A DNA stretch of 64,000 bases, taken from NCBI GenBank assembly GCA_046153685.1, contig JBJXGH010000096.1:491-64490 (forward strand), read 5' to 3'. A model generated the notes under the pieces. It saw only the letters and a program-made list of their open reading frames with translations. It was not told where the DNA came from and did no database searches. A program made the position numbers and the translations under genes. This document shows positions 1,713 to 54,540 of the stretch, piece by piece (position 1 is the stretch's first letter; the number at the start of each line of letters is the position of its first letter). The DNA comes from Alphaproteobacteria bacterium. GTDB taxonomy: Bacteria > Pseudomonadota > Alphaproteobacteria > CADEGL01.

Positions 1713-2462
1713 ATGGCGGGTGTGATGATCGTGACCGGCGGGGGCCGGGGCATCGGTGCGGCGATCGCGCTGCACGCAGGCCGCGCCGGGTATAAGGTTT
1801 GCGTCAACTATGCCAGCTCGAAGGACAAGGCCGAAGCCATCGCCGCGACGATCACCAGCGCGGGCGGACAGGCCATCGCCGTTCAGGCCGACATGGCGTC
1901 CGAGGACGATATTGTCCGCATGTTTCGCGAGATCGACGGCACGCTTGGACGCGTGACCGCGCTCGTCAACAATGCCGGCATCGACGTGACGACGCGCAAT
2001 GTCGAGGACGTGAGACTCGACGACTTGCAGCGCATCTTCGCGGTGAATGTGTTCGGCGCGCTGTTGTGCAGCCGCGAAGCGATCCGGCGCATGTCACCCG
2101 AGAAAGGCGGCCAAGGCGGCGCCATCGTGCATATTTCCTCGCGCGCGTCGGGTCATGGCAATCTCGTCGGAGAAGTGCCCTATACCGCGACCAAGGGTGC
2201 GCTCGATGGCATGACCCTTGTGATGGCGAAGGAAGTCGCCAAGCAGAACATTCGGGTGAATTGCATCCGCCCCGGCCTCATCTTGACAGATATCTTCGAG
2301 CGCTCCGGCGGGCGCGATGCGCTCAAGGAGCGCGCCAAGACCTCGGTGCCCATCGGCCGACCGGGCGAACCCGACGAAGTCGCCGCCGCCGCAATTTGGC
2401 TGTGCTCGAAGGAGGCGTCCTACGTCACGGGTGCGATTCTAGATGTCGGCGGTGGACGCTGA
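1713..2462 (+). CDS. SDR family oxidoreductase
   Basis: Start taken at the internal ATG preceded by gggagga RBS (ORF track begins 1671). VTGGGRGIGAAIA glycine motif, NNAG, YTATK catalytic motif. Confidence 0.8.
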   Translation: MAGVMIVTGGGRGIGAAIALHAGRAGYKVCVNYASSKDKAEAIAATITSAGGQAIAVQADMASEDDIVRMFREIDGTLGRVTALVNNAGIDVTTRNVEDVRLDDLQRIFAVNVFGALLCSREAIRRMSPEKGGQGGAIVHISSRASGHGNLVGEVPYTATKGALDGMTLVMAKEVAKQNIRVNCIRPGLILTDIFERSGGRDALKERAKTSVPIGRPGEPDEVAAAAIWLCSKEASYVTGAILDVGGGR

Positions 2463-3503: not shown

Positions 3504-4226
3504 ATGGCCAGGCGCGTCACCCTTTTGACCGGCGTATCGAAAGGCATTGGCCGCGCCGTGGCCGAACGCCTCGCGCGCGAGGGGCATTATGTCATCGGCC
3601 TCGCGCGCACCAAGCCCGAATGGGATTTTCGAGGCGATTTTCATGCGATCGATCTGACCGATCTTGAAACCACACGCACGCTCGTGGACAACCTCGCCGC
3701 GCGGCACGCCATCGACGGTCTCGTGCACAATGCCGGCTACGCGAAGATCGAACGGCTTGAGACCATGTCCATCGCCGAACTCGACGACATGATGACCCTG
3801 CATGTGCGCGCCGCGGCGGTGATGGTGCAGGCGCTTGCGCCGGCCATGAAAAAACGCGGCTTCGGCCGCATCGTCCTGGTCGGCAGCCGCGCGGCTCTGG
3901 GCAAGATCGGTCGCGGTGCCTATGCCGCTACGAAATCGGCGATGCTTGGTTTCATGCGCAGCTGGGCGCTCGAACTTGGACCGAGCGGCATAACGGTCAA
4001 TTGCGTGGCCCCGGGCCCGACCGCGACCGAGCTGTTCCGCCGCGGCAATCCACCCGACGCGCCCGCGACCAAGGCGATCATCGCCTCGATTCCGGTGGGA
4101 CGCATGGGCAAGCCCGAGGAGATGGCCGGAGCGGTCGCCTATTTTCTCGGCGAGGATGCTTCCTTCACCACGGGTCAGGCGCTCTATGTCTGTGGCGGGC
4201 TGACCGTGGGCCTATATCCGGGCTGA
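3504..4226 (+). CDS. SDR family oxidoreductase
   Basis: LLTGVSKGIGRAVAERL, HNAG, YAATK motifs; 4 nt after the cyclase stop. Confidence 0.8.
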   Translation: MARRVTLLTGVSKGIGRAVAERLAREGHYVIGLARTKPEWDFRGDFHAIDLTDLETTRTLVDNLAARHAIDGLVHNAGYAKIERLETMSIAELDDMMTLHVRAAAVMVQALAPAMKKRGFGRIVLVGSRAALGKIGRGAYAATKSAMLGFMRSWALELGPSGITVNCVAPGPTATELFRRGNPPDAPATKAIIASIPVGRMGKPEEMAGAVAYFLGEDASFTTGQALYVCGGLTVGLYPG

Positions 4227-4227
4227 C

Positions 4228-5385
4228 ATGGCGCTTCTCTGGGAGCCGCGTTTGGACGACGAGGCGCTTCGCTGGCGCGATCTCGCGCGCGAGCTCACGG
4301 CGAAATATTTCGCGCCCCTCGCCACCGAATTGGACCGCGATCAACGCTATCCATGGGAAAGCGTGAAGCGACTCATCGACGTCAAAATCGCCGGCATGTT
4401 CGTGCCAAAAATCTATGGCGGCGAAGGCGCGTCTCTGACCGCATTTTGTTCAGTGGTCGAGGCAGTCGCGCGCGGCTGCGCCTCGACCTCGGCCATCGTG
4501 GTTGCCTTTCCGCTTGGCGGTTTTCCCCTCCTCCTCGAAGGCAGCGAAGCCCAGAAACACTCCTATCTCGGCGGTTTGGCCCGCGAGGGTGTCGCCATCA
4601 ATTTCGCGCTGTCCGAGCGCGGCGCCGGCTCCGACATCGCCGCCATCTCGACCTCGGCCACGCGCGAGGACGGCAAATGGCGCTTGCGGGGCGAGAAATG
4701 CTGGCTCGGCAATGGCGGCGCCGCGCGCCATTACATCGTATTCGCGCGCGAGGCGGAAAGCCGGGCGATCACGGCCTTTCTTGTGGATAAGGAACAGCCG
4801 GGCGTCGCCATCGATTTCTTCGAGGACAAGATGGGTTTGCGCGGCACGCTGACGAGCAATCTCAAGCTCGACACCCTGGTCGCGGATTCGGCGATCGTCG
4901 GCACGCCGGGCAAGGGCCTGCGTCTCGCGCTCAAGACTCTTGCTGTCGGCCGCGTGACTGTCGCGGCCCAGTCCGTCGGCATAGCGCTTGCCGCCTATGA
5001 CGCGGCCGCGCGCCATGCTGTCGAGCGCCGGGCTTTCGGCCAGGCGATCATCGATCACCAGGCGGTCGGCTTCAAATTGGCGGACATGGCGACCGAGATT
5101 TCCGCCGCGCGCATGATGCTGCACGAGGCGGCGCAAGCCTATGATCGGGGCGAGGACGTCTCTGGCCTCGGCACGATGGCGAAATTGTACGCGAGCGAGG
5201 CCGCTCACCGCGCCGTCGATTCGGCCGTGCAGATTTTCGGCGGCCCGGGTTACGTCAAGCCCAACGCGGTCGAACGCTATTACCGCGATCAGCGCATCAC
5301 CGAAATCTATGAAGGCACCTCGGAAATTCTCCGCATGGTTCTCATGCGCGCCGTTCGCTCGGACTTCGCGCCGCAATCGAAATGA
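4228..5385 (+). CDS. acyl-CoA dehydrogenase family protein
   Basis: 385 aa. ACAD N/M/C domain pattern with GAGSD, QIFGGPGY and YEGTSEI motifs. Confidence 0.85.
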   Translation: MALLWEPRLDDEALRWRDLARELTAKYFAPLATELDRDQRYPWESVKRLIDVKIAGMFVPKIYGGEGASLTAFCSVVEAVARGCASTSAIVVAFPLGGFPLLLEGSEAQKHSYLGGLAREGVAINFALSERGAGSDIAAISTSATREDGKWRLRGEKCWLGNGGAARHYIVFAREAESRAITAFLVDKEQPGVAIDFFEDKMGLRGTLTSNLKLDTLVADSAIVGTPGKGLRLALKTLAVGRVTVAAQSVGIALAAYDAAARHAVERRAFGQAIIDHQAVGFKLADMATEISAARMMLHEAAQAYDRGEDVSGLGTMAKLYASEAAHRAVDSAVQIFGGPGYVKPNAVERYYRDQRITEIYEGTSEILRMVLMRAVRSDFAPQSK

Positions 5386-5410: not shown

Positions 5411-6748
5411 ATGACCGAGGATCGGCCCCACTCCGCCAAAATCTGGGACGCGCGCGAGCTTTGGACGCGCGACCGTATAGCCGCCCATCAGCTCCAGCGC
5501 CTAACCGCGCAACTCGCCTATGTCGAGGAACACAGCACCTTCTACCGGGCGCGCTTTGCCGATATCGGATTCAAGCCCTGCGACTTCGCCTCGCTCGATG
5601 ATTTGCGCCGCCTGCCGATTACCCGCAAGGCCGATTACGTCGCCGCGGTCGAGTTGGATTTGCCTTGGGGCAGCCATTTGGCAGCCCCCCTTTGCGACGT
5701 GCGCCGCGCGCATTATTCCTCCGGCACCACCTCCAAACCCGTGCCCAATTGCTGGACCGCGCCCGATCTTGATCGCTGGACGGATCTGTACGCGCGCGGC
5801 GGCTATGCCCAAGGTGTCCGCGAGCGCGATATTTTCCAGAATCTCTTTTCCATGTCGTGGTTCGTCGGCGGGCTCGGCGCCATGGCGTCCTACGCCAAGA
5901 TCGGCGCGCTGTGCATCCCCGGCGGCAGCGTCGATTCCGAACGCCAAGTGCGCACGATGTTCGATTACGGCACCACGGCCGTATGCGCGACGCCGTCCTT
6001 CGCCGCTCATTTGGCCGAAACCGCCGCCGCCATGGGGCTTGATCTACGCGATTCGAAGGTCGAGAGCCTGGCGCTCGGCGGCGAGCCGGGCGCTCAAGTT
6101 CCCGCGACGCGCGCGATGATCGAGGACCGTTGGGGCGCCAAGGCCTACGACGCCTATGGCAGCCTCGAATTCAACCCCATCGCCTGGGAATGCGAGGCGC
6201 AAGCCGGCGGCCATCTGTGCGAGGATTTCGCGATTGCCGAGATTCTCGACGCCGATACCGAGGCGCCGGTGCCCGACGGCCAGCCGGGCGTCCTGGTTAT
6301 GACCCATCTCGACAAACAGGCCGTGCCGCTCGTGCGCTGGTGGACGGGCGATGTGGTGGTGCGCGATTCGCGCCCCTGCGCCTGCGGGCGAACCCATGCG
6401 CGCCTTCCCGGCGGAGTGCGCGGGCGCGCCGACGACATGATGATCGTGCGCGGCGTCAATGTCTTCCCAAGCGCGGTCGAGGACGTCGTGCGCTCGATGC
6501 CGGGCCTGTCGGGGGAATATCTCATCGTGCTCGACGCCGACACGACCGATGCCAAGACGGGCTTCCTCACGAGCCTCAAGATTCGCGTCGAGCGCACGCG
6601 CACAGCACCGCCCGACATCGCCGAACGCATCTCGGCGGCGCTGCGCAAATCGCTCAATGTCCGCGTGATCGTGGAAGTCCTCGACGAAGGCGTTTTGCCG
6701 CGCACCACGCACAAGGCCAAACGCATCCTGCGCGAGAAGAAACAATAA
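5411..6748 (+). CDS. phenylacetate-CoA ligase family protein (PaaK-like / F390 synthetase-type adenylate-forming enzyme)
   Basis: In-frame ATG at 5411 (ORF track starts 5141). SSGTTSKP adenylation motif; overall PaaK-like sequence. Confidence 0.75.
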   Translation: MTEDRPHSAKIWDARELWTRDRIAAHQLQRLTAQLAYVEEHSTFYRARFADIGFKPCDFASLDDLRRLPITRKADYVAAVELDLPWGSHLAAPLCDVRRAHYSSGTTSKPVPNCWTAPDLDRWTDLYARGGYAQGVRERDIFQNLFSMSWFVGGLGAMASYAKIGALCIPGGSVDSERQVRTMFDYGTTAVCATPSFAAHLAETAAAMGLDLRDSKVESLALGGEPGAQVPATRAMIEDRWGAKAYDAYGSLEFNPIAWECEAQAGGHLCEDFAIAEILDADTEAPVPDGQPGVLVMTHLDKQAVPLVRWWTGDVVVRDSRPCACGRTHARLPGGVRGRADDMMIVRGVNVFPSAVEDVVRSMPGLSGEYLIVLDADTTDAKTGFLTSLKIRVERTRTAPPDIAERISAALRKSLNVRVIVEVLDEGVLPRTTHKAKRILREKKQ

Positions 6749-6782
6749 ACCCGCCGCGTTCGCGGCAAACGGGAGAACCGCC

Positions 6783-9092
6783 ATGAACGTCGCCATCGGC
6801 CAGCCGATTCGCCGCGTCGAGGATGACCGGCTGCTTCGCGGCCAGGGCCGGTTTCTCGAGGATGTGCGCTTGGCGCACGAAGCCCAAGCCGTGGTGCTGC
6901 GCTCGCCGCACGCGCACGCGCGCATTTGCTCGCTCGATATTGCCGCCGCGCGCGCGGCGCCGGGCGTGCTCGCCGTTCTGACCCACGCGGACTTGGCGGC
7001 CGAGGGCGTGAAGTCGTTGCCGCCGATGACGCGCGATCCGCGCTACGAGATAAAGAATTCCGACGGCAGCCGGATGCCGGAACCCGAGCATTGCCCCCTC
7101 GCCAAGGACAAGGTGCGCCATGTCGGCGATCCCGTCGCCTTCGTGGTCGCCGAAACCCGCGCCCAGGCGCTCGACGCCGCGGCGCTGATCGCGGTCGATT
7201 ACGATCCACTGCCCGCCGTCATCGATGCCGCGTCCGCGCGCGCACCGGGCGCGCCGGTCCTGCATGACGGCGCGCCGGGCAACCGCGTGCTCGAATGGTC
7301 GGTCGGCGACCGCAAGGCAACCGACGAGGCCTTCGCCAAGGCCCATCGTGTGACGCGCCTCAAGCTGCACAATAACCGCCTCATTTGCGCCTATCTCGAG
7401 CCGCGCGCGGCCATGGCGAGCGTCACGGGCCGTGCCATCACGCTTTACGCCTCGGGCCAAGGCGCGCACCGCTTCCGCGAGACGCTTTCCTTCTGTCTCG
7501 GAGTGGCGCAGGACGATGTGCGCGTGGTCATGGGCGATGTCGGGGGCGGATTCGGCCCGCGCGGGTTTTTCCAGCCCGAGAACGTGCTCGTCGCCCTGGC
7601 CGCGCGACGCCTCGGTCGGCCCGTGCGCTGGATCGGCGATCGCGCCGAAGGTTTCACGACCGATGTCCAGGCACGCGACCACGCGATCGAGTGCGCCATC
7701 GCCCTCGATGCCAGCGGCCGGTTCCTCGCCCTGGATGTGACCAGCGATTGGAACATGGGCGCCTATGTGCCGGCGCGCGCGGTCTTCGCCCAGATCGCGC
7801 ACATGGGTCCCGTCATTCCTGGCGCCTATCGCTTCGCCGCGCTCCATTTCACGATCCGCGGATATCTCACCAACATGGCGCCCATCTATGCGCTGCGCGG
7901 CATCGGCCGCGCCGAGGCGAGTCACATCCTCGAACGCCTGATCGAGGAAGCCGCGCACGAGATGAAGCTCGACCGGCTGGAGATTCGCCGGCGCAATCTC
8001 GTGCCCGTCTCGGCCATGCCCTACGACAACAAGGCGGGATCGATTTACGACTCGGGCGAGTTCGAGGCCATCATGGACAAGGCCCTGGCGCTTGGCGATT
8101 GGCAGGGCTTCGCCGCGCGCAAGGCGCAATCGCGCGCGCGCGGGCTGTTGCGCGGCATTGGCCTCTGCAATTTCGTCGAGAACGCGGGCGGCGCGCCATC
8201 GGAATTCGCCGAGGTGAAGGCCGATCCCGCGCGCCGCCTCGATCTATACGTGGGCTCCGGGCCGAGCGGACAGGGCCACGAAACGGTCTATGCCCAGGTG
8301 CTTGCAGCCGAGCTCGGCCTGCCCTTCGAGGACGTGCGCACCCATATCGGCGACACCGCCATCGTCAAGGCGGGTTACGGCTCGGCCGCCTCGCGCTCGA
8401 TGCGCAAGGCGGGGTCCGCCGTCGTGCTCGGCGCGCGCATCATGGTCGAGAAGGGTAAGATTCTCGCCGGCGACATGATGGAGGCGACCCCCGCCGATAT
8501 CGAATACCAAGCGGGCCGGTTCCGCGTCGCGGGCACGGACAAGAGCGTGCATCTTTACGACGTGGCCGCGCACGCCCGCGCCAAGGGCGAGGAGCTATCG
8601 GGCGCCATCGACCACAAACAGCCCGAGGAAACCTTCCCCAATGGCTGCCAGGTGGCCGAGGTCGAAATCGACCCCGAAACCGGCAAGGTCGATTTGGTGC
8701 GCCACAGCTTCGTCAACGATGTCGGGCGGGTCATTAATCCGCTTCTACTCGACGGCCAGTTGCACGGCGGAGTAGCCCAAGGCATCGGCCAGGCGATGAC
8801 CGAGCGAACGGTTTACGGCGCGGACGGCCAGCTGCTTTCGGGCAGTTTCATGGATTATTGCATCCCGCGCGCGGACGACATGCCGATATTCGCCACCGCC
8901 TTCCACGAGGTGCCATGCGCGGGCAATCCCTTGGGCGTCAAGGGCGCGGGCGAAGGCGGCACCACCGGCGCGCCGCCCGCGATTCTGAACGCGGTGATCG
9001 ACGCACTGCGCGATTACGCCGCGACGGACATCGACATGCCCGCCCGGCCGGAAACCGTCTGGCGCGCGATCGGCGCCAGACGGCCCGGTTGA
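6783..9092 (+). CDS. xanthine dehydrogenase family protein, molybdopterin-binding large subunit (orphan; no adjacent FeS/FAD subunits)
   Basis: 769 aa. N-terminal RRVEDDRLLRGQGRF, GGGFGPRG and C-terminal GVKGAGEGG motifs of aldehyde oxidase/CoxL-type enzymes. Active-site loop reads ALRGIGRAEA rather than AYRGAGR. Confidence 0.85.
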   Translation: MNVAIGQPIRRVEDDRLLRGQGRFLEDVRLAHEAQAVVLRSPHAHARICSLDIAAARAAPGVLAVLTHADLAAEGVKSLPPMTRDPRYEIKNSDGSRMPEPEHCPLAKDKVRHVGDPVAFVVAETRAQALDAAALIAVDYDPLPAVIDAASARAPGAPVLHDGAPGNRVLEWSVGDRKATDEAFAKAHRVTRLKLHNNRLICAYLEPRAAMASVTGRAITLYASGQGAHRFRETLSFCLGVAQDDVRVVMGDVGGGFGPRGFFQPENVLVALAARRLGRPVRWIGDRAEGFTTDVQARDHAIECAIALDASGRFLALDVTSDWNMGAYVPARAVFAQIAHMGPVIPGAYRFAALHFTIRGYLTNMAPIYALRGIGRAEASHILERLIEEAAHEMKLDRLEIRRRNLVPVSAMPYDNKAGSIYDSGEFEAIMDKALALGDWQGFAARKAQSRARGLLRGIGLCNFVENAGGAPSEFAEVKADPARRLDLYVGSGPSGQGHETVYAQVLAAELGLPFEDVRTHIGDTAIVKAGYGSAASRSMRKAGSAVVLGARIMVEKGKILAGDMMEATPADIEYQAGRFRVAGTDKSVHLYDVAAHARAKGEELSGAIDHKQPEETFPNGCQVAEVEIDPETGKVDLVRHSFVNDVGRVINPLLLDGQLHGGVAQGIGQAMTERTVYGADGQLLSGSFMDYCIPRADDMPIFATAFHEVPCAGNPLGVKGAGEGGTTGAPPAILNAVIDALRDYAATDIDMPARPETVWRAIGARRPG

Positions 9093-9097: not shown

Positions 9098-10300
9098 TTA
9101 TTTCTCGTACAATTTCCTGGGAAGCGAGTTGAGCACCTCGACGCCCGTCCGCGTCACGCGGATGGAATTCGACGTGACGATGCCCATCTCGTCCTGGATG
9201 AGGCAGCCCGGCACCAGGTGGAACGTCATGTTCGGCTGCAACAACCGCTTCTCGCCCTTGCGGATCGAGATGATCTGCCCTTCGCCCCAATCGGGCGGAT
9301 AGTTGATACCGATCGAATAGCCGATGCGATGGACGTGCTGCGCGCCGAAGCCGTTCTTCTCGAAGACGCGGTGGCCAACCTCGTTGACGGATTCGCAACT
9401 GACACCCGGCCGAATCGCGCCGAGCACGGCTTCGAGCGCCTCGACCGTGGTATCGAACAATTTCCGCACGCGCGGGCGGACCTTGCCCGTGGTCGCGGTG
9501 CGGAACACCGCGCCGCAATAGCGGTATTTCGACGCCGCGATTTCGAAGATGCAATGGTCGCTCGCCGTCATCTTGCGCCCGCGCCACGTCGCGTGGCACG
9601 CGCCGGAACGCCGGCCGGAGACGATGAAATTGGGCAGGCCCGTGTACTCGGCGCCCTGTTCGCACCAAACCTTGTGCAAAGCGCCCGCGATCTGGTCCTC
9701 CGACACGCCCGGCTTCACGGCCTTGATGCCGGCCAGGCAGGCCTTGTCGGCAATCGCGACCGCTTGCTTGATGACCTTGACCTCGGCCTCGGACTTGATC
9801 ATCCGGGCTTCCTCGACAAGCGTCGTGGCGTCGGTGAAGCGCGCGCGGGACAATCCGTCCTTGATCGCCTCGTACTCGTTGACGGTGAAGAAGAACCCGC
9901 CCTTCTCCAACCCGATTCGCTTGCCGTCGAGGGCCATGCGGCGCGCCGTCTCGACCGTAACCGAGACCGGCACGACGTGATCCTCGACGGGCGCGGTTTC
10001 GACGAGCCAGGAAAACTCAGGCACGTTCGTGAGTTCGAGCTTGCGCCCGACCAGCACTGGCTGCTGGCCGCGCGCGACGATGAGGCAGTGATAACCGTAA
10101 TAGCCCGGCGTTTCATAGCCCGTAAGGTACGTGATGTTCTCGGGCCCGCGCACGAACAGGGCGTCGAGCCCCGCGCGCTTCATGTTGTCGAGCACGACGT
10201 CGTAGCGCCGCCTGTACTCCTCGAGCTTGAAGGGCAAGCGCGGGTGCTGGACCATGCCCAGCTTGTGTCCGCCCGCCGTCGTCTCGGTTCGCGTTGCCAT
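9098..10300 (-). CDS. M24 family metallopeptidase (creatinase / Xaa-Pro aminopeptidase / ectoine-hydrolase-like)
   Basis: 400 aa. Creatinase_N-like N-terminus plus pita-bread C-terminal domain (HRIGYSIGINYPPDWGEG). Confidence 0.8.
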   Translation of the reverse strand: MATRTETTAGGHKLGMVQHPRLPFKLEEYRRRYDVVLDNMKRAGLDALFVRGPENITYLTGYETPGYYGYHCLIVARGQQPVLVGRKLELTNVPEFSWLVETAPVEDHVVPVSVTVETARRMALDGKRIGLEKGGFFFTVNEYEAIKDGLSRARFTDATTLVEEARMIKSEAEVKVIKQAVAIADKACLAGIKAVKPGVSEDQIAGALHKVWCEQGAEYTGLPNFIVSGRRSGACHATWRGRKMTASDHCIFEIAASKYRYCGAVFRTATTGKVRPRVRKLFDTTVEALEAVLGAIRPGVSCESVNEVGHRVFEKNGFGAQHVHRIGYSIGINYPPDWGEGQIISIRKGEKRLLQPNMTFHLVPGCLIQDEMGIVTSNSIRVTRTGVEVLNSLPRKLYEK

Positions 10301-17321: not shown

Positions 17322-17330
17322 TGCGCGCGC

Positions 17331-27894: not shown

Positions 27895-28017
27895 TCGACC
27901 GCGGTGCGGCTGGCCTTGGTCGATCTCTTCCATGGCCTTAGACATTAGACACGACGCGTACAACATGGTCGGCGCCGCGGCCGGCGCGTGGAATTCCCGC
28001 CAGCCGTTCCGTAAGCC

Positions 28018-28998: not shown

Positions 28999-29147
28999 GG
29001 GGCGCCCTCCAATGAAGCATAATGGCCATCAAACAGCGCCGACATCGCGGCGCATTCGCACCGCCAGAGGGGCCCGGCACTGATTGCCAATTTTGAGGCG
29101 CGCGATTGGCGCCGTCAAGTCTGGCCTAGGATAACTTTGCGCCGATC

Positions 29148-29891: not shown

Positions 29892-29905
29892 GAATTTTCC
29901 CCCTC

Positions 29906-31012: not shown

Positions 31013-31015
31013 GGC

Positions 31016-32203: not shown

Positions 32204-32318
32204 CCGATATATTCGATATCCTATATTCGATATTTTGGCAGACCAGCCGCGAAAGTGGCTGGTGGCATGAAAAAAATGGCGCCGCCCGATTGCCGCCGGG
32301 CGGCGCCATTTGCGTCAC

Positions 32319-37320: not shown

Positions 37321-37351
37321 CCGAAAAGACGCATCTTTCTCGCCCGAGGGC

Positions 37352-45115: not shown

Positions 45116-45718
45116 ATGGACATGACCGGCGAGTTCAGGCTCGACGCGCCGCCGGAAGTCGTGTGGCGCGCGCTCAACGACCCCGAAGTCCTCAAGCAGT
45201 GCATTCCCGGCTGTGAAACCTTGACCAAGAACTCGGATACCGAGTTCGTGGCGGAGGTGCGCGCCAAGGTCGGGCCGGTATCGGCCAGATTTACCGGCAA
45301 GGTCAGCCTGACCGATCTTGATCCGCCGAACGGCTATAGGATCTCGGGCGAGGGCCAGGGCGGCGTCGCCGGTTTTGCCAAAGGCGGAGCTGAGGTCAAA
45401 TTGGTGCCCGACGGCGCTGGCACTCTGTTGTCATACAGCGCCAACGGTCAGGTTGGCGGCAAGCTCGCCCAGATTGGCTCGCGCCTAATCGACGCAACCG
45501 CGCGCAAGATGGCCGACGATTTTTTCACCCGCTTCGCCGATGCGGTCAAAGGCGCGGCGACCGGCGCCACCGACGGCGCGGGCAAGGCCGAATCCGGAAC
45601 GCCAGCACCCGATCAACCCCTGGCCGCAGCCGCCAAGCGCAAGGGGCTTTCGCCGCTGGTTTGGATTGCGGCGGTCATCGCCGGGATCGTCATCATTTTG
45701 GCCGCATTCGGGCGCTAA
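45116..45718 (+). CDS. coxG: carbon monoxide dehydrogenase subunit G-like (SRPBCC family)
   Basis: 200 aa; N-terminal CoxG/SRPBCC fold pattern plus C-terminal TM anchor. Confidence 0.75.
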   Translation: MDMTGEFRLDAPPEVVWRALNDPEVLKQCIPGCETLTKNSDTEFVAEVRAKVGPVSARFTGKVSLTDLDPPNGYRISGEGQGGVAGFAKGGAEVKLVPDGAGTLLSYSANGQVGGKLAQIGSRLIDATARKMADDFFTRFADAVKGAATGATDGAGKAESGTPAPDQPLAAAAKRKGLSPLVWIAAVIAGIVIILAAFGR

Positions 45719-45876
45719 CTTCGGGTCGCGCCTAAATTCCCCCCGGCGCTCCCCGCATCCGGTCTTGACCGGGCGTGGACCGCCGGGGAGACTGGTGCCA
45801 AGATCGCCAAGGGGCGGCAAAGTGCGGGATTTTCGCGGGTCCGGGCAGGGCGCGCGTGTCAATGAGGGAGGAATTC

Positions 45877-46344
<468 letters not shown>

Positions 46345-46348: not shown

Positions 46349-48727
46349 ATGGCAGTATCCGGCATCGGAGCATCTGTCCGCCGAGTTGAGGATTTCCGCT
46401 TCCTGACCGGCCGTGGAAACTACACGGATGATATCAACCGGCCAAATCAGCTCCACGCACATATCCTCCGCTCGCCCCACGCCCATGCGAAGATCAAGAA
46501 GATCGACGCGTCCAAGGCGTTGAAGGCCCCGGGCGTCGTCGCCGTCTTCACGGGCGCCGATATCGAGAAGGATCAAATCGGCGGCCTGCCCTGCGGTTGG
46601 CTCGTCACCGACCGTAACGGCCAGCCCATGGTCGAGCCGCCTCACCCCATCTTGGTGGCCGAACGCGCGCGCCATGTCGGCGATCAAGTCGCGGTCGTCA
46701 TCGCCGAGACCCGCGCCCAGGCGCGCGACGCGGCGGAATTGGTCAAGATCGATTACGACGAACAGGGCGCAGCCATAGGCCTTGCTGACGCGACGAAGAA
46801 AGGCGCGCCCCTCGTGTGGGACCAGGCGCCCGGCAATATTTGCTACGATTGGGCGCTCGGCGACTCCGCCGTAGTGGACTCCGCCTTCAAGACGGCCGCC
46901 AAGGTCGCCAAGGTCGATATCGTCAACAACCGCCTCATTCCCAACGCGATGGAACCCCGCGCCGCGATCGGCGATTACGACCTCTCGAAAGGCAATTACA
47001 ATCTCTACACCACGAGCCAAAATCCGCACGTCATCCGCCTGTTGATGTCGGCCTATGTACTCAAGGTTTCCGAGCACAAGGTGCGTGTGTATTCGCCCGA
47101 TGTCGGCGGCGGGTTCGGCTCCAAGATCTACCACTATGCCGAGGAAGCCATCGTCTGCTGGGCCTCGCGGAAGCTGGGCCGGCCGGTCAAATGGACCGCC
47201 GATCGCAGCGAATCCTTCATGTCGGACGCTCACGGCCGCGATCATCTGACCAAGGCCGAAATCGCCCTCGACGCGGGCGGAAAGTTCCTGGCGATGCGCG
47301 TCGTGACGGTCGCGAACATGGGTGCCTATCTTTCGACCTTCGCGCCGTGTATTCCGACCTATCTTTACGCTCTCTTGCTGGCCGGCACCTACACCACGCC
47401 CGCGATCTTCTGCGAGGTAAAGGCGGTATTCACCCATACCGTGCCTGTCGATGCCTATCGCGGCGCGGGTAGGCCGGAAGCGACCTATGTCGTCGAACGC
47501 CTGGTGGACGAAGCCGCGCGCGTGACGGGACTGGATGTCGCGGAGATCCGGCGGCGTAATTTCATCCCGCGCGATGCCTTCCCCTACCAGACTCCGGTTG
47601 TCGTGCAGTACGATTCAGGCGACTACCAATCGACGCTCGAAATCGCGCTAAAGACGGCCGATTATTCGGGTTTCGCCGCGCGGCGCGGCGAATCGGCCAA
47701 ACGCGGCAAGCTCCGCGGCCTAGGGCTTTCGACCTATATCGAGGCCTGCGGCATCGCGCCCTCGGCGGTCGTGGGCTCGGTCGGCGCGCGAGCGGGGCTT
47801 TACGAATCGGGCCTTGTGCGCGTGCATCCGACCGGTTCGGTCACGATCCTCACCGGCTCGCACAGCCATGGCCAAGGTCACGAGACGACCTTTGCTCAGC
47901 TGGCCGCCGAACGTCTGGGCGTCGATTTCGACAAGGTCGAGGTGGTCCACGGCGACACGGACAAGATTCCGTTCGGCATGGGCACTTACGGTTCGCGCTC
48001 GCTCGCGGTCGGCGGCTCGGCGCTCGTGAAGGCCATGGACAAGATCATCGCCAAGGGCAAGAAGATCGCCGCCCATCTGCTCGAAGCGGCCGAGGCCGAT
48101 ATCGAGTTCAAGGACGGCACCTTCTCGATCGCCGGCACCGACAAGAAAAAAACCCTCGCCGAGATTTCGGGCGCGGCCTACGTGCCGCACAACTACCCGA
48201 TCGACACGCTCGAGCCGGGCCTCGAGGAGCAGGCGTTCTACGATCCGACGAATTTCACCTTCCCAGGCGGCTGTCACGTGGCCGAGGTTGAGATCGATCG
48301 CGACACGGGCGTCGTGCAATTGGTGAGCTTTGTCGCCGTCGACGACGTGGGTCGGGTCATCAATCCCATGATCGTCGAGGGTCAGGTACACGGCGGGGTC
48401 GCGCAGGGCATGGGTCAGGCGCTGCTCGAGGGCTGCGTGTACGATCAGAAGACCGGCCAACTCGTCACCGGCTCATACATGGACTACACGATGCCGCGCG
48501 CGAGCGATCTGCCGACCCTCAAGGTCAGCACCCATAATACCCTGTGCACGCACAATCCGCTGGGCGTGAAGGGTGTCGGCGAGGTCGGCGCCATCGGCTC
48601 TCCGGCCGCCATCATGAATGCCGTTCATAACGCCGTGGCGCCTTTCGGTGTCACGCATGTCGAAATGCCCGCCACGCCCGAGCGCGTTTGGCGGGCGCTG
48701 CAAAGCGCGCCCAAGGCGGCGGAATAG
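46349..48727 (+). CDS. coxL: Mo-hydroxylase large subunit, form II CoxL-like (xanthine dehydrogenase family)
   Basis: 792 aa; active-site loop AYRGAGR (form II, not the VAYRCSFR of bona fide CO dehydrogenase). Confidence 0.9.
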
Positions 48728-48741
48728 GGAGGAGATCAAAC

Positions 48742-49539
48742 ATGTACGCCTTCAACTATCACCGCGCAAAGAGCGTGGACGAGGCGGTCAAGCTCCAAAA
48801 GGGCTCGTCCGAAGGCAGTTTTCTGGCGGGCGGGCACACGCTCATCCCGACCTTGAAGCAGCGCCTCGCGAAGCCGTCGGACGTCATCGACATCTCTGGG
48901 ATCATGGAACTTCAGGGCATATCCGTCGCCGGCGGAACGGTGACGATCGGTGCTGCGACTCGCCACGGCGACGTGGCGAACTCGCCCGATGTCAAAAAGG
49001 CGATTCCGGCGCTCGCCGAACTGGCCGGACACATTGGCGATCCACAGGTGCGCAACCGCGGCACCATCGGCGGCTCGCTCGCCAATAACGACCCCGCCGC
49101 TGACTATCCAGCCGCGGTGCTCGGTCTTGGCGGGACGGTGCACACCAACAAACGGGCGATCGAGGCCGACAAGTACTTCAAGGGCCTGTTCGAGACTGCG
49201 CTCGAACAGGGCGAGGTCATCACCAAGGTAACCTTTCCGGTCGCCGAGAAGGCGGCCTACATGAAGTTCCCCAACCCCGCCTCGCGCTATGCCCTCGTAG
49301 GCGTATTCGTCGCCAAAACCAAGGGCGGCGTTCGGGTCGCGGTCACGGGCGCGGGCCCTGGCGTGTTCCGCTCGGCGGACATGGAAAAGGCTCTCGGCGC
49401 CAAGTTCGAGGCCGATGCGGTCGCCAACATCAAGGTCTCGCCCAAAAACCTCAATAGCGACATTCACGCGAGCGCCGATTATCGCGCCCATCTCGTGACG
49501 GTCATGGCCAAGCGCGCGGTCGCGAAAGCCAATAGCTGA
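48742..49539 (+). CDS. coxM: FAD-binding medium subunit of Mo hydroxylase
   Basis: 265 aa from ATG 48742 after gggaggag RBS; FAD_binding_5 / CO_deh_flav_C pattern. Confidence 0.85.
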   Translation: MYAFNYHRAKSVDEAVKLQKGSSEGSFLAGGHTLIPTLKQRLAKPSDVIDISGIMELQGISVAGGTVTIGAATRHGDVANSPDVKKAIPALAELAGHIGDPQVRNRGTIGGSLANNDPAADYPAAVLGLGGTVHTNKRAIEADKYFKGLFETALEQGEVITKVTFPVAEKAAYMKFPNPASRYALVGVFVAKTKGGVRVAVTGAGPGVFRSADMEKALGAKFEADAVANIKVSPKNLNSDIHASADYRAHLVTVMAKRAVAKANS

Positions 49540-49654: not shown

Positions 49655-50575
49655 ATGGTCGCAATCCCCGCCTCGGTCGATGCCACCCTTGCCCTGTTGG
49701 CAAAGGGCAATTACATCGCCGAACGCAGCTTGGCGACGGCGACATTTTTGTCGCTCAAGCTCGGCCGTCCCCTCTTTCTCGAGGGCGAGGCCGGAGTGGG
49801 CAAGACCGAGATCGCCAAGGTTCTCGCGGCCATGCTCGGCCGCAATCTCGTGCGCCTGCAATGCTACGAGGGCCTCGATATCGCCTCGGCCGTGTATGAG
49901 TGGAATTATTCGCGCCAGATGATCGAAATACGCCTCGCCGAAGCGAGTGGAAATCTCGACCGCGAGCAATTGGGCACGGATATCTTCGCCCGCCGATTTC
50001 TCATCGAGCGCCCGCTGCTTAAGGCGCTCGAACCCGATATCGCGGGTCCACCCGTATTGCTGATCGACGAGCTCGACCGGGCGGACGAGCCCTTCGAGGC
50101 TTATTTGCTCGAAGTTCTATCCGACTACCAGATCACCATCCCGGAGTTCGGCACGATAAAGGCCGAATCTCCGCCCATCGTGATCGTAACCTCCAACCGC
50201 ACGCGCGAAATCCACGACGCGCTGAAGCGCCGCTGCTTCTATCACTGGGTCGACTTTCCGGATGCCGCGCGCGAACTCGAAATTCTACGACTCAAGGTGC
50301 CGGGTGCGGATGCGCGACTGTCGCGCGAGGTCGTATTGTTCGTCCAGCGGCTGCGCAAGATGGACCTGTTCAAGCAGCCCGGAATCGCCGAGACCATCGA
50401 TTGGACCCAGGCCCTCACCCAGCTCGACGCCATCGCGCTCGATCCCGACACGATCAACGATACCGTCGGCGCCCTGCTGAAATACCAGGACGACATCGCC
50501 AAGATCCGGGGCAGCCAGGCCGCCCAGATCCTGGAACAGGTCAAGGCGGAAATCGCGGCAACGAGCCCCGCCTAG
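49655..50575 (+). CDS. coxD: MoxR-like AAA+ ATPase
   Basis: 306 aa; Walker A GEAGVGKT, Walker B LLIDELDRA. Confidence 0.85.
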   Translation: MVAIPASVDATLALLAKGNYIAERSLATATFLSLKLGRPLFLEGEAGVGKTEIAKVLAAMLGRNLVRLQCYEGLDIASAVYEWNYSRQMIEIRLAEASGNLDREQLGTDIFARRFLIERPLLKALEPDIAGPPVLLIDELDRADEPFEAYLLEVLSDYQITIPEFGTIKAESPPIVIVTSNRTREIHDALKRRCFYHWVDFPDAARELEILRLKVPGADARLSREVVLFVQRLRKMDLFKQPGIAETIDWTQALTQLDAIALDPDTINDTVGALLKYQDDIAKIRGSQAAQILEQVKAEIAATSPA

Positions 50576-50583
50576 GCCGCGCC

Positions 50584-51828
50584 ATGGAGGACGCACGCAA
50601 CCCCGCGGACGAGGCGCTTCCAGGCGGCAAGCTGCTTGCCAATATCATGCATTTTGCGCGCGCGCTGCGCGCCGCCGGCCTGCCCATCGGCCCCGGACGG
50701 GTGATCGAGGCGGTGCGCGCGGTTGAGTGCGCGGGCATGGGCAATCGCGGCGACTTTTACTGGGCGCTCCATTCGGTGTTCGTGAGCCGGCGCGACCAAC
50801 GCGAATTGTTTGATCAAGCATTTCATGTCTTTTGGCGCAACCCGCGCATTCTCGAACGCATGATGTCCATGCTTCTGCCCCAACTCGACATTCCCGGCGC
50901 CGAGCAGGGCCAGGAGCTGTCGAAACGCGTGGCCGACGCGCTGCGCGGCAATCAGGCAAGCGACGCCGAGCGCGAGATCGAGAAGGAGCCGGAAATCACC
51001 ATCGACGCGGTGATGACATATTCCGACCGCGAATTGCTGCAAAAGATGGATTTCGAGACCATGTCCGCGGTCGAGATCGCCGAGGCGAAGAAGCGCATCC
51101 GCTCGATGCGCCTGCCCATCGCCGAGGTCCCCACGCGCCGCCACGCGCCAGACCGCGCTGGCGCACGTATCGACATGCGGGCGACATTGCGCGCGAGCCT
51201 GCGCGCGGGCGGCGGCGATATTCCCTTGAAGCGCAGAGAACCGCGCCGGCGCCATCCCCCGCTCGTCATTCTGTGTGATATTTCGGGTTCCATGAGCCGC
51301 TATTCGCGCATGTTGCTACACTTCATGCATGCCGTGACGAACGACCGCGACCGCGTGTTTTCGTTCCTGTTTGGAACGCATCTGACGAACGTCACCCGAC
51401 ATCTGCGCCAGCGCGACGTGGACGTGGCGCTGGAGCGCTGCGGCGAAGCCGCCGGCGATTGGTCCGGCGGCACACGCATCGGCCAGTCGCTCAAGGATTT
51501 CAACCGCCAGTGGTCGCGACGCGTGCTCGGCCAGGGCGCGCTCGTGTTGTTCATATCCGACGGCCTCGACCGCGACGCGGGCGATGGTCTCGCCGGCGAA
51601 ATCGAGCGGCTGCACAAATCCTGCCGCCGGCTAATTTGGCTCAATCCCCTGTTGCGTTACCAGGGATTCGAACCCAGATCATTGGGCATGCGGGCCATTC
51701 TCCCGCATGTGGACGAGTTTCGACCCGTTCATAATCTCGAAAGTCTTGCGTCGCTTGCGGCGGCCCTATCCAGCCCCGCCCCGCGACGCGGAGAGGGCAT
51801 GGCAAAATGGCAAGCGACGCTCCATTGA
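50584..51828 (+). CDS. coxE: VWA domain-containing CoxE-like protein
   Basis: In-frame ATG 50584; C-terminal VWA with MIDAS-like LCDISGSM. Confidence 0.8.
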   Translation: MEDARNPADEALPGGKLLANIMHFARALRAAGLPIGPGRVIEAVRAVECAGMGNRGDFYWALHSVFVSRRDQRELFDQAFHVFWRNPRILERMMSMLLPQLDIPGAEQGQELSKRVADALRGNQASDAEREIEKEPEITIDAVMTYSDRELLQKMDFETMSAVEIAEAKKRIRSMRLPIAEVPTRRHAPDRAGARIDMRATLRASLRAGGGDIPLKRREPRRRHPPLVILCDISGSMSRYSRMLLHFMHAVTNDRDRVFSFLFGTHLTNVTRHLRQRDVDVALERCGEAAGDWSGGTRIGQSLKDFNRQWSRRVLGQGALVLFISDGLDRDAGDGLAGEIERLHKSCRRLIWLNPLLRYQGFEPRSLGMRAILPHVDEFRPVHNLESLASLAAALSSPAPRRGEGMAKWQATLH

Positions 51829-52163
51829 ACGCGCAAGCGAACGCGCTCGCGCACGAGAACATTCTCGAAGCGGCCTCCGAATGGTTGCAATCTGGCCGTC
51901 GGGTGGCACTGGCGACTGTGGTCACGACCTGGGGTTCTTCTCCCCGCCCGATCGGTAGCCAGTTGGCGGTCGACGACAAGGGCGCGATGATCGGCTCTGT
52001 TTCCGGCGGCTGCATCGAAGGTGCGGTGGTGCAGGAGGCCCTGGCTGCCATCGAGGACGGCAAGCCGCGCGTGCTCGATTTCGGCGTCACGCACGAACAG
52101 GCCTGGGCCGTGGGCCTTGCGTGCGGCGGCAAGGTGCAGGTTTACCTCGAGCGCATGGAATGA
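51807..52163 (+). CDS. XdhC family protein, N-terminal (XdhC_CoxI) module as separate ORF
   Basis: 118 aa; ..VALATVVTTWGSSPRPIGSQLAV...GSVSGGCIE. Confidence 0.7.
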   Translation: MASDAPLNAQANALAHENILEAASEWLQSGRRVALATVVTTWGSSPRPIGSQLAVDDKGAMIGSVSGGCIEGAVVQEALAAIEDGKPRVLDFGVTHEQAWAVGLACGGKVQVYLERME

Positions 52164-52882
52164 AACGCGAGCTCCTCGGCGCCCTGCTGGCCGCGCGGGC
52201 GGCAAAAACCCCGATCGCGCTCGCAACCAGACTCGACACCGGTGCACAAGCCTTGATCGGGCCTATGCCGGTCGGCGGGACCTGGTCGCGCGGCGATCTC
52301 ACGCTCGACGCGGATTCGCTTGCGGCCGTACACCTTGCGCTTGCCGGCGACACGAGCGGCATGATCGAAACACCTTCGTTCCGGATATTCGTCCAGGTGT
52401 ACAACCCGCCCCTGCGCCTCATCGTGGTCGGAGCCGTGCACATCGCCCAGGCGCTCGTGCCCATGGCCGCGCTCGCGGGCTACTCGGTCGTAGTCGTCGA
52501 TCCGCGCCGCGCCTTCGCTACCGATGCGCGCTTTCCCCATACCACCGTCACGACCGAATGGCCGGACGACGCCATGTCGCGACTCGCGCCCGATCGACGC
52601 ACGGCCGTCGTGACCCTAACCCACGATCCCAAGCTCGACGACCCGGCGCTGACGGTGGCGCTCAAATCCGATGCCTTTTACATCGCGGCGCTCGGAAGCC
52701 GGAAAACCCATGGCGCGCGCCTGAAACGCCTCAAGGATGCGGGCTTCGACGGCGCGGCGCTTGCGCGCATCCACGGCCCCGCGGGCCTTGCCATCGGCGC
52801 CAAGTCCCCTGCCGAAATTGCGCTTTCCATCATGGCCCAGGCGACCCAGATTCTCCACGCGAAGACCGGGGCGGAAGGGTGA
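52160..52882 (+). CDS. XdhC/CoxI family protein, C-terminal Rossmann-like module
   Basis: ATGA overlap with the preceding ORF; LIVVGAVHIAQALVPMAALAGYSVVVVDPR pattern. Confidence 0.7.
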   Translation: MKRELLGALLAARAAKTPIALATRLDTGAQALIGPMPVGGTWSRGDLTLDADSLAAVHLALAGDTSGMIETPSFRIFVQVYNPPLRLIVVGAVHIAQALVPMAALAGYSVVVVDPRRAFATDARFPHTTVTTEWPDDAMSRLAPDRRTAVVTLTHDPKLDDPALTVALKSDAFYIAALGSRKTHGARLKRLKDAGFDGAALARIHGPAGLAIGAKSPAEIALSIMAQATQILHAKTGAEG

Positions 52883-54540
52883 AGTTCGGCGACGTGCCGC
52901 TCGCCGAAGCCGAGGGCGCGATCCTCGCCCATGGTCTTGTTCTGCCCGGCCCAAGCGGCCCGCGTGGGGCCACCTACAAGAAGGGCCGGCGCCTGACGGC
53001 CGAGGATATCGGCGCCATCGCAAGAGCGGGAATCACGCGCGTGACAGTCGCGCGGCTCGACGGGGCGGACGCGCACGAGGACGAAGCGGCCGCAACCCTC
53101 GCCCGAGCCGCCGCGGGCCCGGGTCTCGAGACCGCGGCCCCCTTCACGGGGCGCGCCAATCTGTTCGCTGCGGCGCGCGGCCTCGCGGTCATCGATCGCA
53201 CCCGCATCGACGCCATCAACACCATCGACGAAGCCATCACGCTTGCGACCGTGCCGCCTTACGAGGTGGTCGAGGCGCGCCAGATGGTGGCGACGGTGAA
53301 GATCATCCCCTTTGCCGTGCCGCGCGCCTTGCTCGACCGCGCTCTGGCTATCACGAGCGCGGGCGGCGCGCTGGCTCGCGTCGCCCCCTTCCGGCCGCGC
53401 CCCGTCGCGCTCATCCAAACGCGCCTGGCAGGGATGAAAGAAGCCGTTCTCGACAAGACCGTCGCGATCGTTCGCGCGCGCATCGAGGCGCTGGGCAGCA
53501 CCCTTTCCGGCGAGCAGCGGTGCGCGCACGAAATAGAGGCGGTGCGCGCGGCCATCGCAAAGGCACAGAGCAGCGGCGCCGAGCTCGTGCTGATCGCCGG
53601 CGCGTCCGCGATCACCGATCGGCGTGACGTCGTGCCCGCGGCCATCGTCGCCGCGGGCGGGCGCATCGAGCATTTCGGCATGCCGGTCGATCCCGGAAAC
53701 CTTCTGCTACTCGCGCACGGCAACGCCAGCATCATATTGGGCCTGCCGGGCTGCGTGCGCTCGCCCAAGTTCAACGGTTTCGACTGGGTGCTGCGCCGCA
53801 TTCTCGCCGACGTGCCGGTCGTGGGGCGCGATCTCATGCTGATGGGCGCGGGTGGACTGCTCAATGAAATCCCAAGCCGCCCGATGCCGCGCGCGGGCGA
53901 TGCGGCGCCTGACGATCGCGCGCACAGCCAAAAGCGCCCAAAAATCGCCGCGCTGGTACTGGCCGCGGGGCTGTCGCGCCGGATGGGGCCGCGGAACAAA
54001 TTGCTTGCCGCGATCGACGGCGCACCCATGGTTGCACGCGCGGTGGACGCGGCGCTCGCCTCGCGCGCGCGACCCGTGGTCGTCGTGATCGGGCACGAGG
54101 CCGAGCGGGTGCAGAACGCCTTGGGTCACAAGCGCAAAGTCGAATTCGTCCACAATCCTGACTTCGCCCAGGGTTTGAGCGCTTCGCTGCAGCGCGGTCT
54201 CGCCGCCCTACCGCGGGATTGCGACGGCGTGCTGATCTGCCTTGGCGATATGCCGCGCGTAAGGGCGCAGACTCTTGACGCCCTGATCGACGCGTTCCAG
54301 CCGCTCGAGGGTCGCGCCATCTGCGTGCCGACCTTCCGCGGCAAGCGCGGCAATCCCGTGCTGTTCGCACGGCAGTTTTTCGCCGAAATGGCAGCGATCG
54401 CGGGCGATGTGGGCGCTCGCCACCTGATCGGAGAAAATACCGAGCTCGTCGCCGAAATCGACATGACCGACGAGGGTATCTTGCTCGATGTCGATTCGCC
54501 CGATGCGCTGGCCGCGCTCGATCCGGCCAAAACCGCGTGA
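52879..54540 (+). CDS. molybdopterin-binding (MoCF-biosynthesis domain) / MocA-like cytidylyltransferase fusion protein
   Basis: GTG start overlapping the xdhC stop (GTGA). The N-terminal half is a MoeA/CinA-like Moco-binding domain. The C-terminal half has the AALVLAAGLSRRMG..NK nucleotidyltransferase motif of MocA/MobA. Confidence 0.7.
   Translation: MKFGDVPLAEAEGAILAHGLVLPGPSGPRGATYKKGRRLTAEDIGAIARAGITRVTVARLDGADAHEDEAAATLARAAAGPGLETAAPFTGRANLFAAARGLAVIDRTRIDAINTIDEAITLATVPPYEVVEARQMVATVKIIPFAVPRALLDRALAITSAGGALARVAPFRPRPVALIQTRLAGMKEAVLDKTVAIVRARIEALGSTLSGEQRCAHEIEAVRAAIAKAQSSGAELVLIAGASAITDRRDVVPAAIVAAGGRIEHFGMPVDPGNLLLLAHGNASIILGLPGCVRSPKFNGFDWVLRRILADVPVVGRDLMLMGAGGLLNEIPSRPMPRAGDAAPDDRAHSQKRPKIAALVLAAGLSRRMGPRNKLLAAIDGAPMVARAVDAALASRARPVVVVIGHEAERVQNALGHKRKVEFVHNPDFAQGLSASLQRGLAALPRDCDGVLICLGDMPRVRAQTLDALIDAFQPLEGRAICVPTFRGKRGNPVLFARQFFAEMAAIAGDVGARHLIGENTELVAEIDMTDEGILLDVDSPDALAALDPAKTA

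Follow-up and report, generated by a model that had tools for sequence, protein, structure and literature searches.

The DNA analysed here (the window) is a 64,000-nucleotide stretch of contig JBJXGH010000096.1 (positions 491 to 64,490, forward strand; assembly GCA_046153685.1) from an alphaproteobacterium, and all coordinates given below are those of the window unless another locus is named. The analysis was centred on a gene at 6783..9092 (+), here called MoL, which starts with ATG and encodes a 769-residue large subunit (MFN0043175.1) of the xanthine dehydrogenase (XDH) family, of the type that binds the molybdopterin cytosine dinucleotide (MCD) cofactor. Matches to three Pfam domains, Ald_Xan_dh_C (PF01315, residues 20-144), MoCoBD_1 (PF02738, residues 160-406) and MoCoBD_2 (PF20256, residues 434-701), were all well over their cut-offs, with E values of 1e-25 to 1e-74. 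Together these domains cover residues 20-701 and therefore leave no room for an extra redox domain.

The motifs of the family were all found in MoL. The active-site loop, ALRGIGRAEA (residues 370-379; 7890..7919, +), aligned with AYRCSF of the carbon monoxide (CO) dehydrogenases and with AYRAPG of KdhL, and in the hammerhead domain the alignment revealed a five-residue insertion, DPRYE (residues 85-89; 7035..7049, +). The loop and the insertion are the two markers of the group of sequences, termed clade A, to which MoL belongs. The family's catalytic glutamate is Glu724 (codon at 8952..8954, +) in the motif KGAGEGG; it was invariant in an alignment of 17 sequences and aligned to the glutamate of KG(V/I)GE in CoxL and of KGLGE in KdhL, in which E748 has been named the conserved catalytic glutamate (PMC8305194). 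The motifs GGGFG254, Gln226, Arg372 (in the loop), GQGHET496 and SRS537 were also present. In 17 relatives, down to 55% identity, the cofactor and catalytic motifs were invariant, at a mean column identity of 72%; on this comparison they are kept under purifying selection, and MoL is an intact catalytic subunit, predicted to be functional. An MCD cofactor in MoL would be compatible with the presence of an open reading frame (ORF) for a MobA-like transferase at 52021-54540.

An earlier note on this DNA, made from the letters alone, had described MoL as the last gene of an operon that otherwise encodes a short-chain dehydrogenase (SDR1), a cyclase-family protein, a second short-chain dehydrogenase (SDR2), an acyl-CoA dehydrogenase (ACAD) and a PaaK-like CoA ligase. 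The gene was said to have no adjacent genes for a [2Fe-2S] or a flavin adenine dinucleotide (FAD) subunit, the nearest coxS and coxM genes being about 37 kb away, and to have a loop that differs from that of the coxL-like gene at 46349-48727. This description held. Pfam and tblastn searches across the window agreed on the absence of adjacent partner genes, the CoxS and CoxM genes were found to start 36.7 kb and 39.6 kb, respectively, downstream of the MoL stop codon, the two loops differed as stated, and in the operon only the starts of the ligase and SDR1 genes had to be corrected.

Comparison with solved structures placed MoL closest to CoxL of M. smegmatis (8UEM, 488 bits), followed by KdhL (386 bits), CutL/CoxL (365-377 bits) and QorL (358 bits). 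The alignments with CoxL, KdhL, CutL and QorL, which belong to heterotrimeric MCD enzymes, ran from end to end, whereas HcrA (PDB 1RM6) was far behind at only 228 bits. None of the NCBIfam equivalog cut-offs was reached. The top match was to glyceraldehyde dehydrogenase alpha (NF041018; 567 bits, cut-off 790), form I CoxL (TIGR02416) scored 484.5 bits against a cut-off of 991, and the alpha subunit of 4-hydroxybenzoyl-CoA reductase (HcrA/HbaC, TIGR03194) scored 337.7 bits against a cut-off of 994.55. These structure and model scores put MoL in the CoxL/Qor/Kdh branch, as a member that is intact but unassigned.

Since both its motif and its gene order differ from those of form I and form II CoxL, MoL belongs to neither type. 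In form I Mo-Cu CoxL (8UEM; O. carboxidovorans 1N5W), the catalytic glutamate, the glutamine and the molybdenum cofactor (Moco) motifs align with those of MoL, but the loop is AYxCSFR, with a cysteine as Cu ligand, whereas MoL has ALRGIGR, with glycine at the position of the cysteine; moreover, form I genes stand in a coxMSL operon, whereas no coxM or coxS gene adjoins MoL. The putative form II ('BMS') CoxL has the same three-domain, MCD-type plan as MoL, and the two have in common a longer hammerhead loop, not found in form I, and the lack of the Cu-binding cysteine. Its motif is AYRGAGR, whereas MoL has ALRGIGR plus the five extra residues at 85-89. The form II gene order coxSLM was seen at the large subunit encoded further downstream in the window, CoxL2 (45775-49539 for the three genes), and not at MoL: CoxL2 is flanked by coxS, coxM, coxG and accessory genes, MoL by none of them.

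Of the characterised loops, that of QorL (1T3Q; 358 bits over the full length), AYRGVG, is the nearest to ALRGIG, from which it differs in having tyrosine where MoL has leucine and valine where MoL has isoleucine. Orthology of QorL and MoL is unsupported, because MoL scores higher with the CoxL of M. smegmatis. Quinoline 2-oxidoreductase (Qor) is a QorMSL heterotrimer. HcrA and HmfA, the latter from 2-furoyl-CoA dehydrogenase, belong to XDH-family enzymes that act on aromatic CoA thioesters, and their genes sit together with those of the iron-sulphur (FeS) and FAD subunits. HcrA is distant from MoL, and the three-gene arrangement hmfABC was not found at the MoL locus, HmfA having been compared by gene arrangement only. 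KdhL (7DQX; 386 bits over the full length) is the large subunit of 6-hydroxypseudooxynicotine (ketone) dehydrogenase (Kdh), an N-heterocycle hydroxylase; its loop is AYRAPG where MoL has ALRGIG. On pAO1, kdhL and kdhMS are in the same cluster and are separated by one gene (PMC10494377), whereas there is no gene for a small or medium (S/M) subunit within 36 kb of MoL.

The loop was surveyed in the best 120 database matches to MoL. Among these, the exact form YALRGIGRAE[AV] occurred in a relative with 94% identity and in one group at 57-59% identity; AYAYRGIGRAEA was read in the relatives at 66-70%, and more distant ones had A[YF]RG[IV]GR[AVM]E. A protein of Thalassobaculum sp. (P0051), one of the matches with a named source, also carries an RG[IV]GR loop. 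An alignment of 125 sequences was then assembled from the best database matches and the large subunits of 80 genome loci, and a neighbour-joining tree was constructed. In this alignment an RG[IV][GA]R loop was accompanied by the five-residue insertion in all clade-A sequences (42/42), and neither the clade-A loop nor the insertion was found in any of the 80 sequences with RGAGRPE. The 42 clade-A sequences were monophyletic in the tree. As judged from the alignment and the tree, clade A is a distinct, uncharacterised alphaproteobacterial subfamily marked by its loop and insertion.

Within clade A, the sequences with leucine in the loop were paraphyletic to a group with tyrosine (P0002-P0006). 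Because leucine and tyrosine toggle among close orthologues in this way, Leu371 represents no special adaptation. Furthermore, the loops of quinoline 2-oxidoreductase and Kdh are AYRGVG and AYRAPG, respectively (PMC8305194), and variation at the loop positions is thus normal for the organic-substrate hydroxylases of the family. The loop, described in the earlier note as a variant, is a signature of clade A, with a leucine/tyrosine toggle, and stands close to the AYRGVG of Qor. A metagenome scan for codon patterns encoding YAxRGIGRAE gave 20 matches, of which four were true relatives; S/M genes and a CoA module were each found beside none of these four.

Ten distinct arrangements of clade-A genes, with large subunits at 53-94% identity to MoL, were compared, and a CoxS or CoxM homologue was present in the available flanks of none of them. 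The window and the 94% relative had the same six-gene operon, and the latter also had the gene for an M24-family protein that converges on MoL in the window. Two arrangements retained dehydrogenase genes: SDR1 and SDR2 preceded MoL in one (P0002), and in the other an amidase gene on the opposite strand was followed by SDR2, MoL and an MFS transporter gene (P0006). The others had the MoL gene flanked by FGGY kinase fragments on one side and by a convergent amidase gene on the other (P0007), after an M23 peptidase gene (P0008), preceded by GltB/GltD-like genes and followed by an M24 gene that converges on it (P0010), between bipA and merB/recJ (P0015 and L004), after genes for a sigma factor and a rhodanese (P0016) or after a gene for an NMT1-type binding protein (P0018). 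The tenth context (L097) also had neither CoxS nor CoxM.

A separate scan of genome loci with generic peptide patterns gave at least 80 loci, mostly with RGAGRPE relatives and with a single clade-A locus (L004), from Bradyrhizobium, Azospirillum, Acetobacteraceae, Reyranella and others; in 54 of the 80, the sequence extended for 5 kb or more to either side of the large-subunit gene. Among the loci listed, CoxS was found within 10 kb in only 4/80, even at E≤0.01, and the full G-S-L-M set was found only at two true orthologues of CoxL2. All-versus-all clustering of the flanking ORFs of 88 loci yielded no recurrent alternative electron partner, only lineage-specific synteny such as that of Bradyrhizobium housekeeping genes. 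According to the neighbourhood surveys, it is thus usual in this part of the family for a large-subunit gene to stand alone. The absence of partner genes, to which the earlier note had drawn attention as a peculiarity of MoL, was common to 10/10 clade-A contexts and to 76/80 of the listed related loci. A marine survey found 9,462 CoxL-like genes in 1,063 genomes (PMC13203968), and paralogues are therefore very numerous.

Several individual loci had further features. In L003 (4410-9946), a glutamate-synthase-like set of genes, for a GATase, a GXGXG/Glu_synthase protein and an 836-residue Fer4_20/Pyr_redox_2 protein, is followed, after 55 bp, by a MoL orthologue (59% identity), on which a 33%-identical M24 gene converges; in principle, the FeS flavoprotein of this single occurrence is a conceivable alternative electron acceptor. 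In L056 (8322-8771) and L078 (14624-15070), a distant CoxS-like gene (40-42% identity) was located on the opposite strand, 1-2.3 kb from a large subunit of the RGAGRPE type; neither locus had CoxM, and a two-component, IorAB-like arrangement is possible. Amidase-signature genes were found near clade-A MoL genes in L001 and in L084, the latter 46% identical to the gene at 13419-14765 of the window. The recurrence of amidase and M24 genes (window, L084, L001 and L003), together with the kinship of MoL to N-heterocycle hydroxylases, faintly suggests a nitrogen-containing cyclic substrate.

The S/M genes nearest to MoL belong to a canonical cluster of form II type, coxG-S-L-M-D-E, that spans 45116-51828 (+). 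It begins with a gene for a CoxG-like protein (45116..45718; Pfam COXG, E=2e-39) and continues with genes for a CoxS-like [2Fe-2S] small subunit (ORF 45775..46344, the true start of which is probably later; Fer2_2, E=4e-35, and Fer2), for the form-II-type large subunit CoxL2 (46349..48727; 43% identical to MoL) and for a CoxM-like FAD medium subunit (ORF 48688..49539; FAD_binding_5, E=2e-47, and CO_deh_flav_C). Genes assigned by Pfam to a CoxD-like AAA ATPase, a CoxE-like VWA protein and, after the end of the cluster, the MoCF_biosynth/MobA-like ORF occupy 49655..54540 (+). When CoxS and CoxM of the window were used as tblastn queries over the whole window, no other copy of either was found. 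These two proteins could be partners of MoL in trans.

The MobA-like ORF (52021-54540, +; 839 residues from a GTG) has a MoCF_biosynth domain at residues 473-581 and a MobA-like NTP transferase domain at residues 644-806. Its first 470 or so residues gave no Pfam match, and the ORF may represent either a fusion or a run of two or three genes that have been read together. Its product could furnish the dinucleotide pterin cofactor to both large subunits. Upstream of the cox cluster, a thiamine pyrophosphate (TPP) riboswitch (40699-40805, +; 64 bits) lies 5' of genes at 40906-43366 for an ABC permease and an NMT1/THI5-like binding protein, which are therefore assigned to transport of a thiamine precursor and not to the cox cluster.

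The operon that ends with MoL comprises six genes on one strand, the first two of which overlap, with spacings of 4, 1, 25 and 34 bp between the rest. SDR1 (1713..2462, +) is the first gene. Its likely start is ATG 1713, although the listed ORF runs from GTG 1671; the start was set by a 249-residue orthologue in the 94% relative, and a 64% orthologue stands at the same place in L095. Against the NCBIfam SDR models it scored 298 bits, which was under the equivalog cut-off. The cyclase-family gene follows (PF04199; 2462..3499, +) and encodes a divergent protein of 345 residues with a Pfam E value of 1e-7. The metal motif of this protein is H-x4-TQxDxxxH and not HxGTHxD: a search of the protein with H.G[TS]H.D, for the HxGTHxDxPxH motif of kynurenine formamidase and isatin hydrolase, gave no match, the region reading IHTQFSTQWDSFAHW. 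Its best and only PDB relative was the uncharacterised 5IBZ (E=2e-35). SDR2 (3504..4226, +) encodes 240 residues (Pfam adh_short_C2, E=8e-47), and the ACAD gene (4228..5385, +) encodes 385 residues in which all three ACAD domains are present; the best NCBIfam models for the latter, acryloyl-CoA reductase and cyclohexane-1-carbonyl-CoA dehydrogenase, were far under their cut-offs.

The ligase gene (5411..6748, +; MFN0043174.1) encodes an adenylate-forming enzyme of 445 residues with AMP-binding and AMP-binding_C_2 domains; it starts at ATG 5411 and not at 5141, the start of the listed ORF. It scored 274 bits with the PaaK model TIGR02155 (cut-off 646) and 288 bits with NF041878 (cut-off 700), and its PDB matches were 4R1L (E=1e-75) and a 2-hydroxyisobutyryl-CoA synthetase (E=4e-59). 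On these scores the protein is PaaK-like in fold only and no true phenylacetate-CoA ligase. A pathway for indoleacetate or isatin, in which an IaaB-like ligase would work with an isatin-hydrolase-like cyclase, was considered and dropped as unsupported: the cyclase-family protein has no canonical metal motif, its PDB relative is uncharacterised, the ligase matches 2-hydroxyisobutyryl-CoA synthetase equally well, and the literature yielded nothing usable.

The 34-bp spacer between the ligase gene and MoL (6749..6782, +) contains a ribosome-binding site, GGGAGAA, 6 nt before the ATG. A short GC hairpin is also present but lacks a T-run on the + strand; the terminator scan called this hairpin on the - strand only, on which there is no gene. 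MoL is the last gene of the operon, because the next gene, for an M24/creatinase-like hydrolase that resembles the ectoine hydrolase DoeA (9098..10300, -; 278 bits, cut-off 575), is convergent and 5 bp away. A second M24/creatinase-like paralogue, 32% identical to the first, lies at 26722-27894 (+). Co-transcription is compatible with the close packing of the genes, with the ribosome-binding site and with the absence of a terminator on the + strand ahead of MoL; in this organism a transcript shared by MoL and the ligase and ACAD genes is probable. The promoter scan gave no sigma-70-like site, and terminator-like sites were at chance level. Neither a Moco riboswitch nor another RNA element was found 5' of the operon; Rfam matches over the window were confined to two tRNAs, the TPP riboswitch and a terC motif, all elsewhere.

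Comparative analysis separated the operon into two parts. Orthologues of the ligase were numerous in Alphaproteobacteria and Actinobacteria (58-73% identity), and in Stella sp., Amycolatopsis thermophila and contigs from JGI the ligase gene (63-65%) adjoined that of an ACAD orthologue (60-66%). In one such case a cyclase orthologue (63%) was also adjacent, this 63% orthologue lying beside those of the ACAD and ligase in L091/L092; the Amycolatopsis locus had a Pfam cyclase-family gene instead, with no tblastn match to the cyclase of the window. Genes for beta-oxidation, CoA transferases, AtuA-like proteins or a branched-chain-type ABC transporter accompanied the ligase-ACAD loci, and no XDH-family gene was found beside the ligase, ACAD and cyclase orthologues in Stella, Amycolatopsis or the JGI contigs. 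Conversely, no ligase or ACAD gene was found near the MoL orthologues at 53-70% identity, so that the linkage was confined to the window and the 94% relative. The most recurrent neighbour of MoL was SDR2, the pair being retained in relatives at 63-70% identity: in L001/L002 and in L095 the gene immediately 5' of the MoL orthologue is an SDR2 orthologue (63-64%), and L095 also has SDR1.

A probable relic of the 3' end of the cyclase gene was detected in L095 (2545-2653; JBGPGW010000190.1) by comparison with 3461-3499 of the window. It lies a few bases 5' of SDR2, within a repeat-rich gap of 570 bp where the cyclase gene would stand, and ends in ...AVGSPATPAAAV-stop, compared with ...AVGSPATPVATV-stop in the window, with an identical core of 14/14 nt. 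The cyclase gene would therefore have been present in the ancestor of that lineage and deleted later, that is, lost there and not gained in the lineage of the window. The SDR2-MoL spacers of L095 and L001 were searched for remains of the ligase gene, and none turned up. From the synteny, the operon is thus made up of a widespread cyclase/ACAD/ligase module and an SDR2-MoL pair; this combination looks lineage-specific, older than this metagenome-assembled genome (MAG) and dispensable for the retention of MoL. The SDR2-MoL spacer of L095 (3377-3450) also contains about three tandem copies of a unit of some 15 bp (CCCATGTGAATGCGG).

With a little more than even confidence, we favour the view that MoL is a working Mo hydroxylase subunit of a habitually solitary subfamily and that its [2Fe-2S] and FAD subunits are provided in trans. 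By analogy with the mechanism of the family, Glu724 would activate the Mo-OH group for attack on an activated C-H carbon of the substrate, with the transfer of two electrons to Mo. Because MoL has no further redox centre, the electrons would then have to leave it through a separately encoded partner, most probably a CoxS-type subunit with two [2Fe-2S] clusters and a CoxM-type FAD subunit; their source could be the coxGSLMDE cluster, 37 kb downstream of MoL, or a pair located at another place in the genome. In support of partners in trans, the contig of MoL also carries a full S/M set, genes for maturation and one for a MobA-like transferase. Such a supply, which the earlier note had also proposed, would be the only conventional way for an intact MoL to work. 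Since it is SDR2 and not the ligase that is kept across relatives, the most likely role of MoL is one shared with SDR2, in the conversion of a small (hetero)cyclic compound. Some points weigh against this view. A literature search for the sharing of CoxS/CoxM between operons, or for orphan coxL genes, found no paper, and the nearest precedent for split genes, the separation of kdhL and kdhMS on pAO1, is a weak one. A dedicated S/M pair may lie outside the 64-kb window of the MAG contig. The link to SDR2 comes from three related lineages, the neighbours of the more distant clade-A genes are unrelated to it, and the link may therefore be local. Finally, the operon shared with the ligase and ACAD genes argues for some role of MoL in that pathway.

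This last point leads to the proposal, made by analogy in the earlier note, that MoL hydroxylates a (hetero)aromatic acyl-CoA formed by the PaaK-like ligase, the S/M subunits being those of the cox cluster. The part of it that concerns gene organization stood up, in that co-transcription with the ligase and ACAD genes is probable: the ligase gene and MoL are on the same strand, the 34 bp that separate them contain a ribosome-binding site but no + strand terminator, the six-gene order is repeated in the 94% relative, and the cyclase relic in L095 dates part of the module to before this lineage. The comparative genomics gave no support to an acyl-CoA hydroxylase. MoL orthologues (53-70%) occur in nine other contexts that have no ligase or ACAD gene, orthologues of the ligase, ACAD and cyclase (60-66%) are found beside beta-oxidation genes with no XDH-family gene, and MoL is far from HcrA, by model (338 bits, cut-off 995) as well as by structure (228 bits with 1RM6, against 488 with CoxL). 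Moreover, the known XDH-family enzymes that act on CoA thioesters have their three subunit genes together. We consider an acyl-CoA substrate unlikely. That MoL has an S/M pair of its own elsewhere in the genome, not shared with the cox cluster, would suit a window that represents 64 kb of a 66.9-kb MAG contig, and the one-gene gap between kdhL and kdhMS on pAO1 means that strict contiguity is not obligatory (PMC10494377). Nevertheless, no S/M pair was found within 10 kb in any clade-A context, and a pair that is always distant over ten arrangements would be unusual, which makes a dedicated pair quite improbable.

The absence of S/M coupling from every sampled clade-A context is also what would be expected if these subunits used no CoxS/CoxM at all, and either worked alone or passed electrons to a non-canonical acceptor, such as a GltD-like FeS flavoprotein, a quinone or O2; the MoL orthologue that starts 55 bp after the Fer4_20/Pyr_redox_2 protein gene in L003 would fit such a scheme. 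This is highly doubtful, given that no alternative partner recurs in the flanks, that the equally orphan genes of the RGAGRPE type are close kin of partnered form II CoxL, and that MoL aligns end to end with partnered enzymes and has no added redox domain. To our knowledge, no XDH-family enzyme functions without a [2Fe-2S] module. Decay of MoL to a non-functional paralogue would account for the missing partner genes, but the ORF is full-length, the motifs are invariant down to 55% identity and the family is widespread and conserved, and we regard it as extremely improbable. Of wider consequence, and in our estimation distinctly unlikely, is the possibility that clade-A subunits, and perhaps other orphan CoxL-like subunits, are interchangeable cartridges that draw on a shared CoxS/CoxM pool or operate with no [2Fe-2S]/FAD module. 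If true, a shared pool or module-free operation would alter the textbook view that each heterotrimeric molybdenum hydroxylase of bacteria has an operon to itself.

As far as MoL of the window is concerned, the result is a modest one, since it appears to be an ordinary clade-A member within a lineage-specific operon. Bacterial genomes, those of Alphaproteobacteria in particular, contain many CoxL-like genes, whose annotation as CO dehydrogenase is a routine error, and the RG[I/V]GR loop together with the five-residue insertion provides a marker by which clade A can be told from CO-oxidation genes in surveys. Clade A also sharpens the question of how orphan catalytic subunits obtain their FeS and FAD partners.

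The remainder of the window contained some features unconnected with MoL. What looks like an imuA'-like/imuB/dnaE2 mutagenesis cassette (14864-20609, +) comprises an unassigned ORF of 295 residues, an ImuB that resembles Y-family polymerases and has IMS domains, and a Pol III alpha subunit of the error-prone DnaE2 type (1092 residues). The terC RNA motif (29030-29085, -; 53 bits) is located directly upstream of the gene for a TerC-family membrane protein (28018-28998, -). That gene falls in a region, 28000-40000, with a lower G+C content (0.58-0.63) and a strong positive AT skew, in which the minus strand carries the genes for TerC, an amino-acid ABC transporter, a Kup K+ transporter and TauE, and in which the two tRNA genes, Arg-TCT and Pro-TGG, are located; the shift in composition is probably due to membrane-protein coding and not to foreign DNA.

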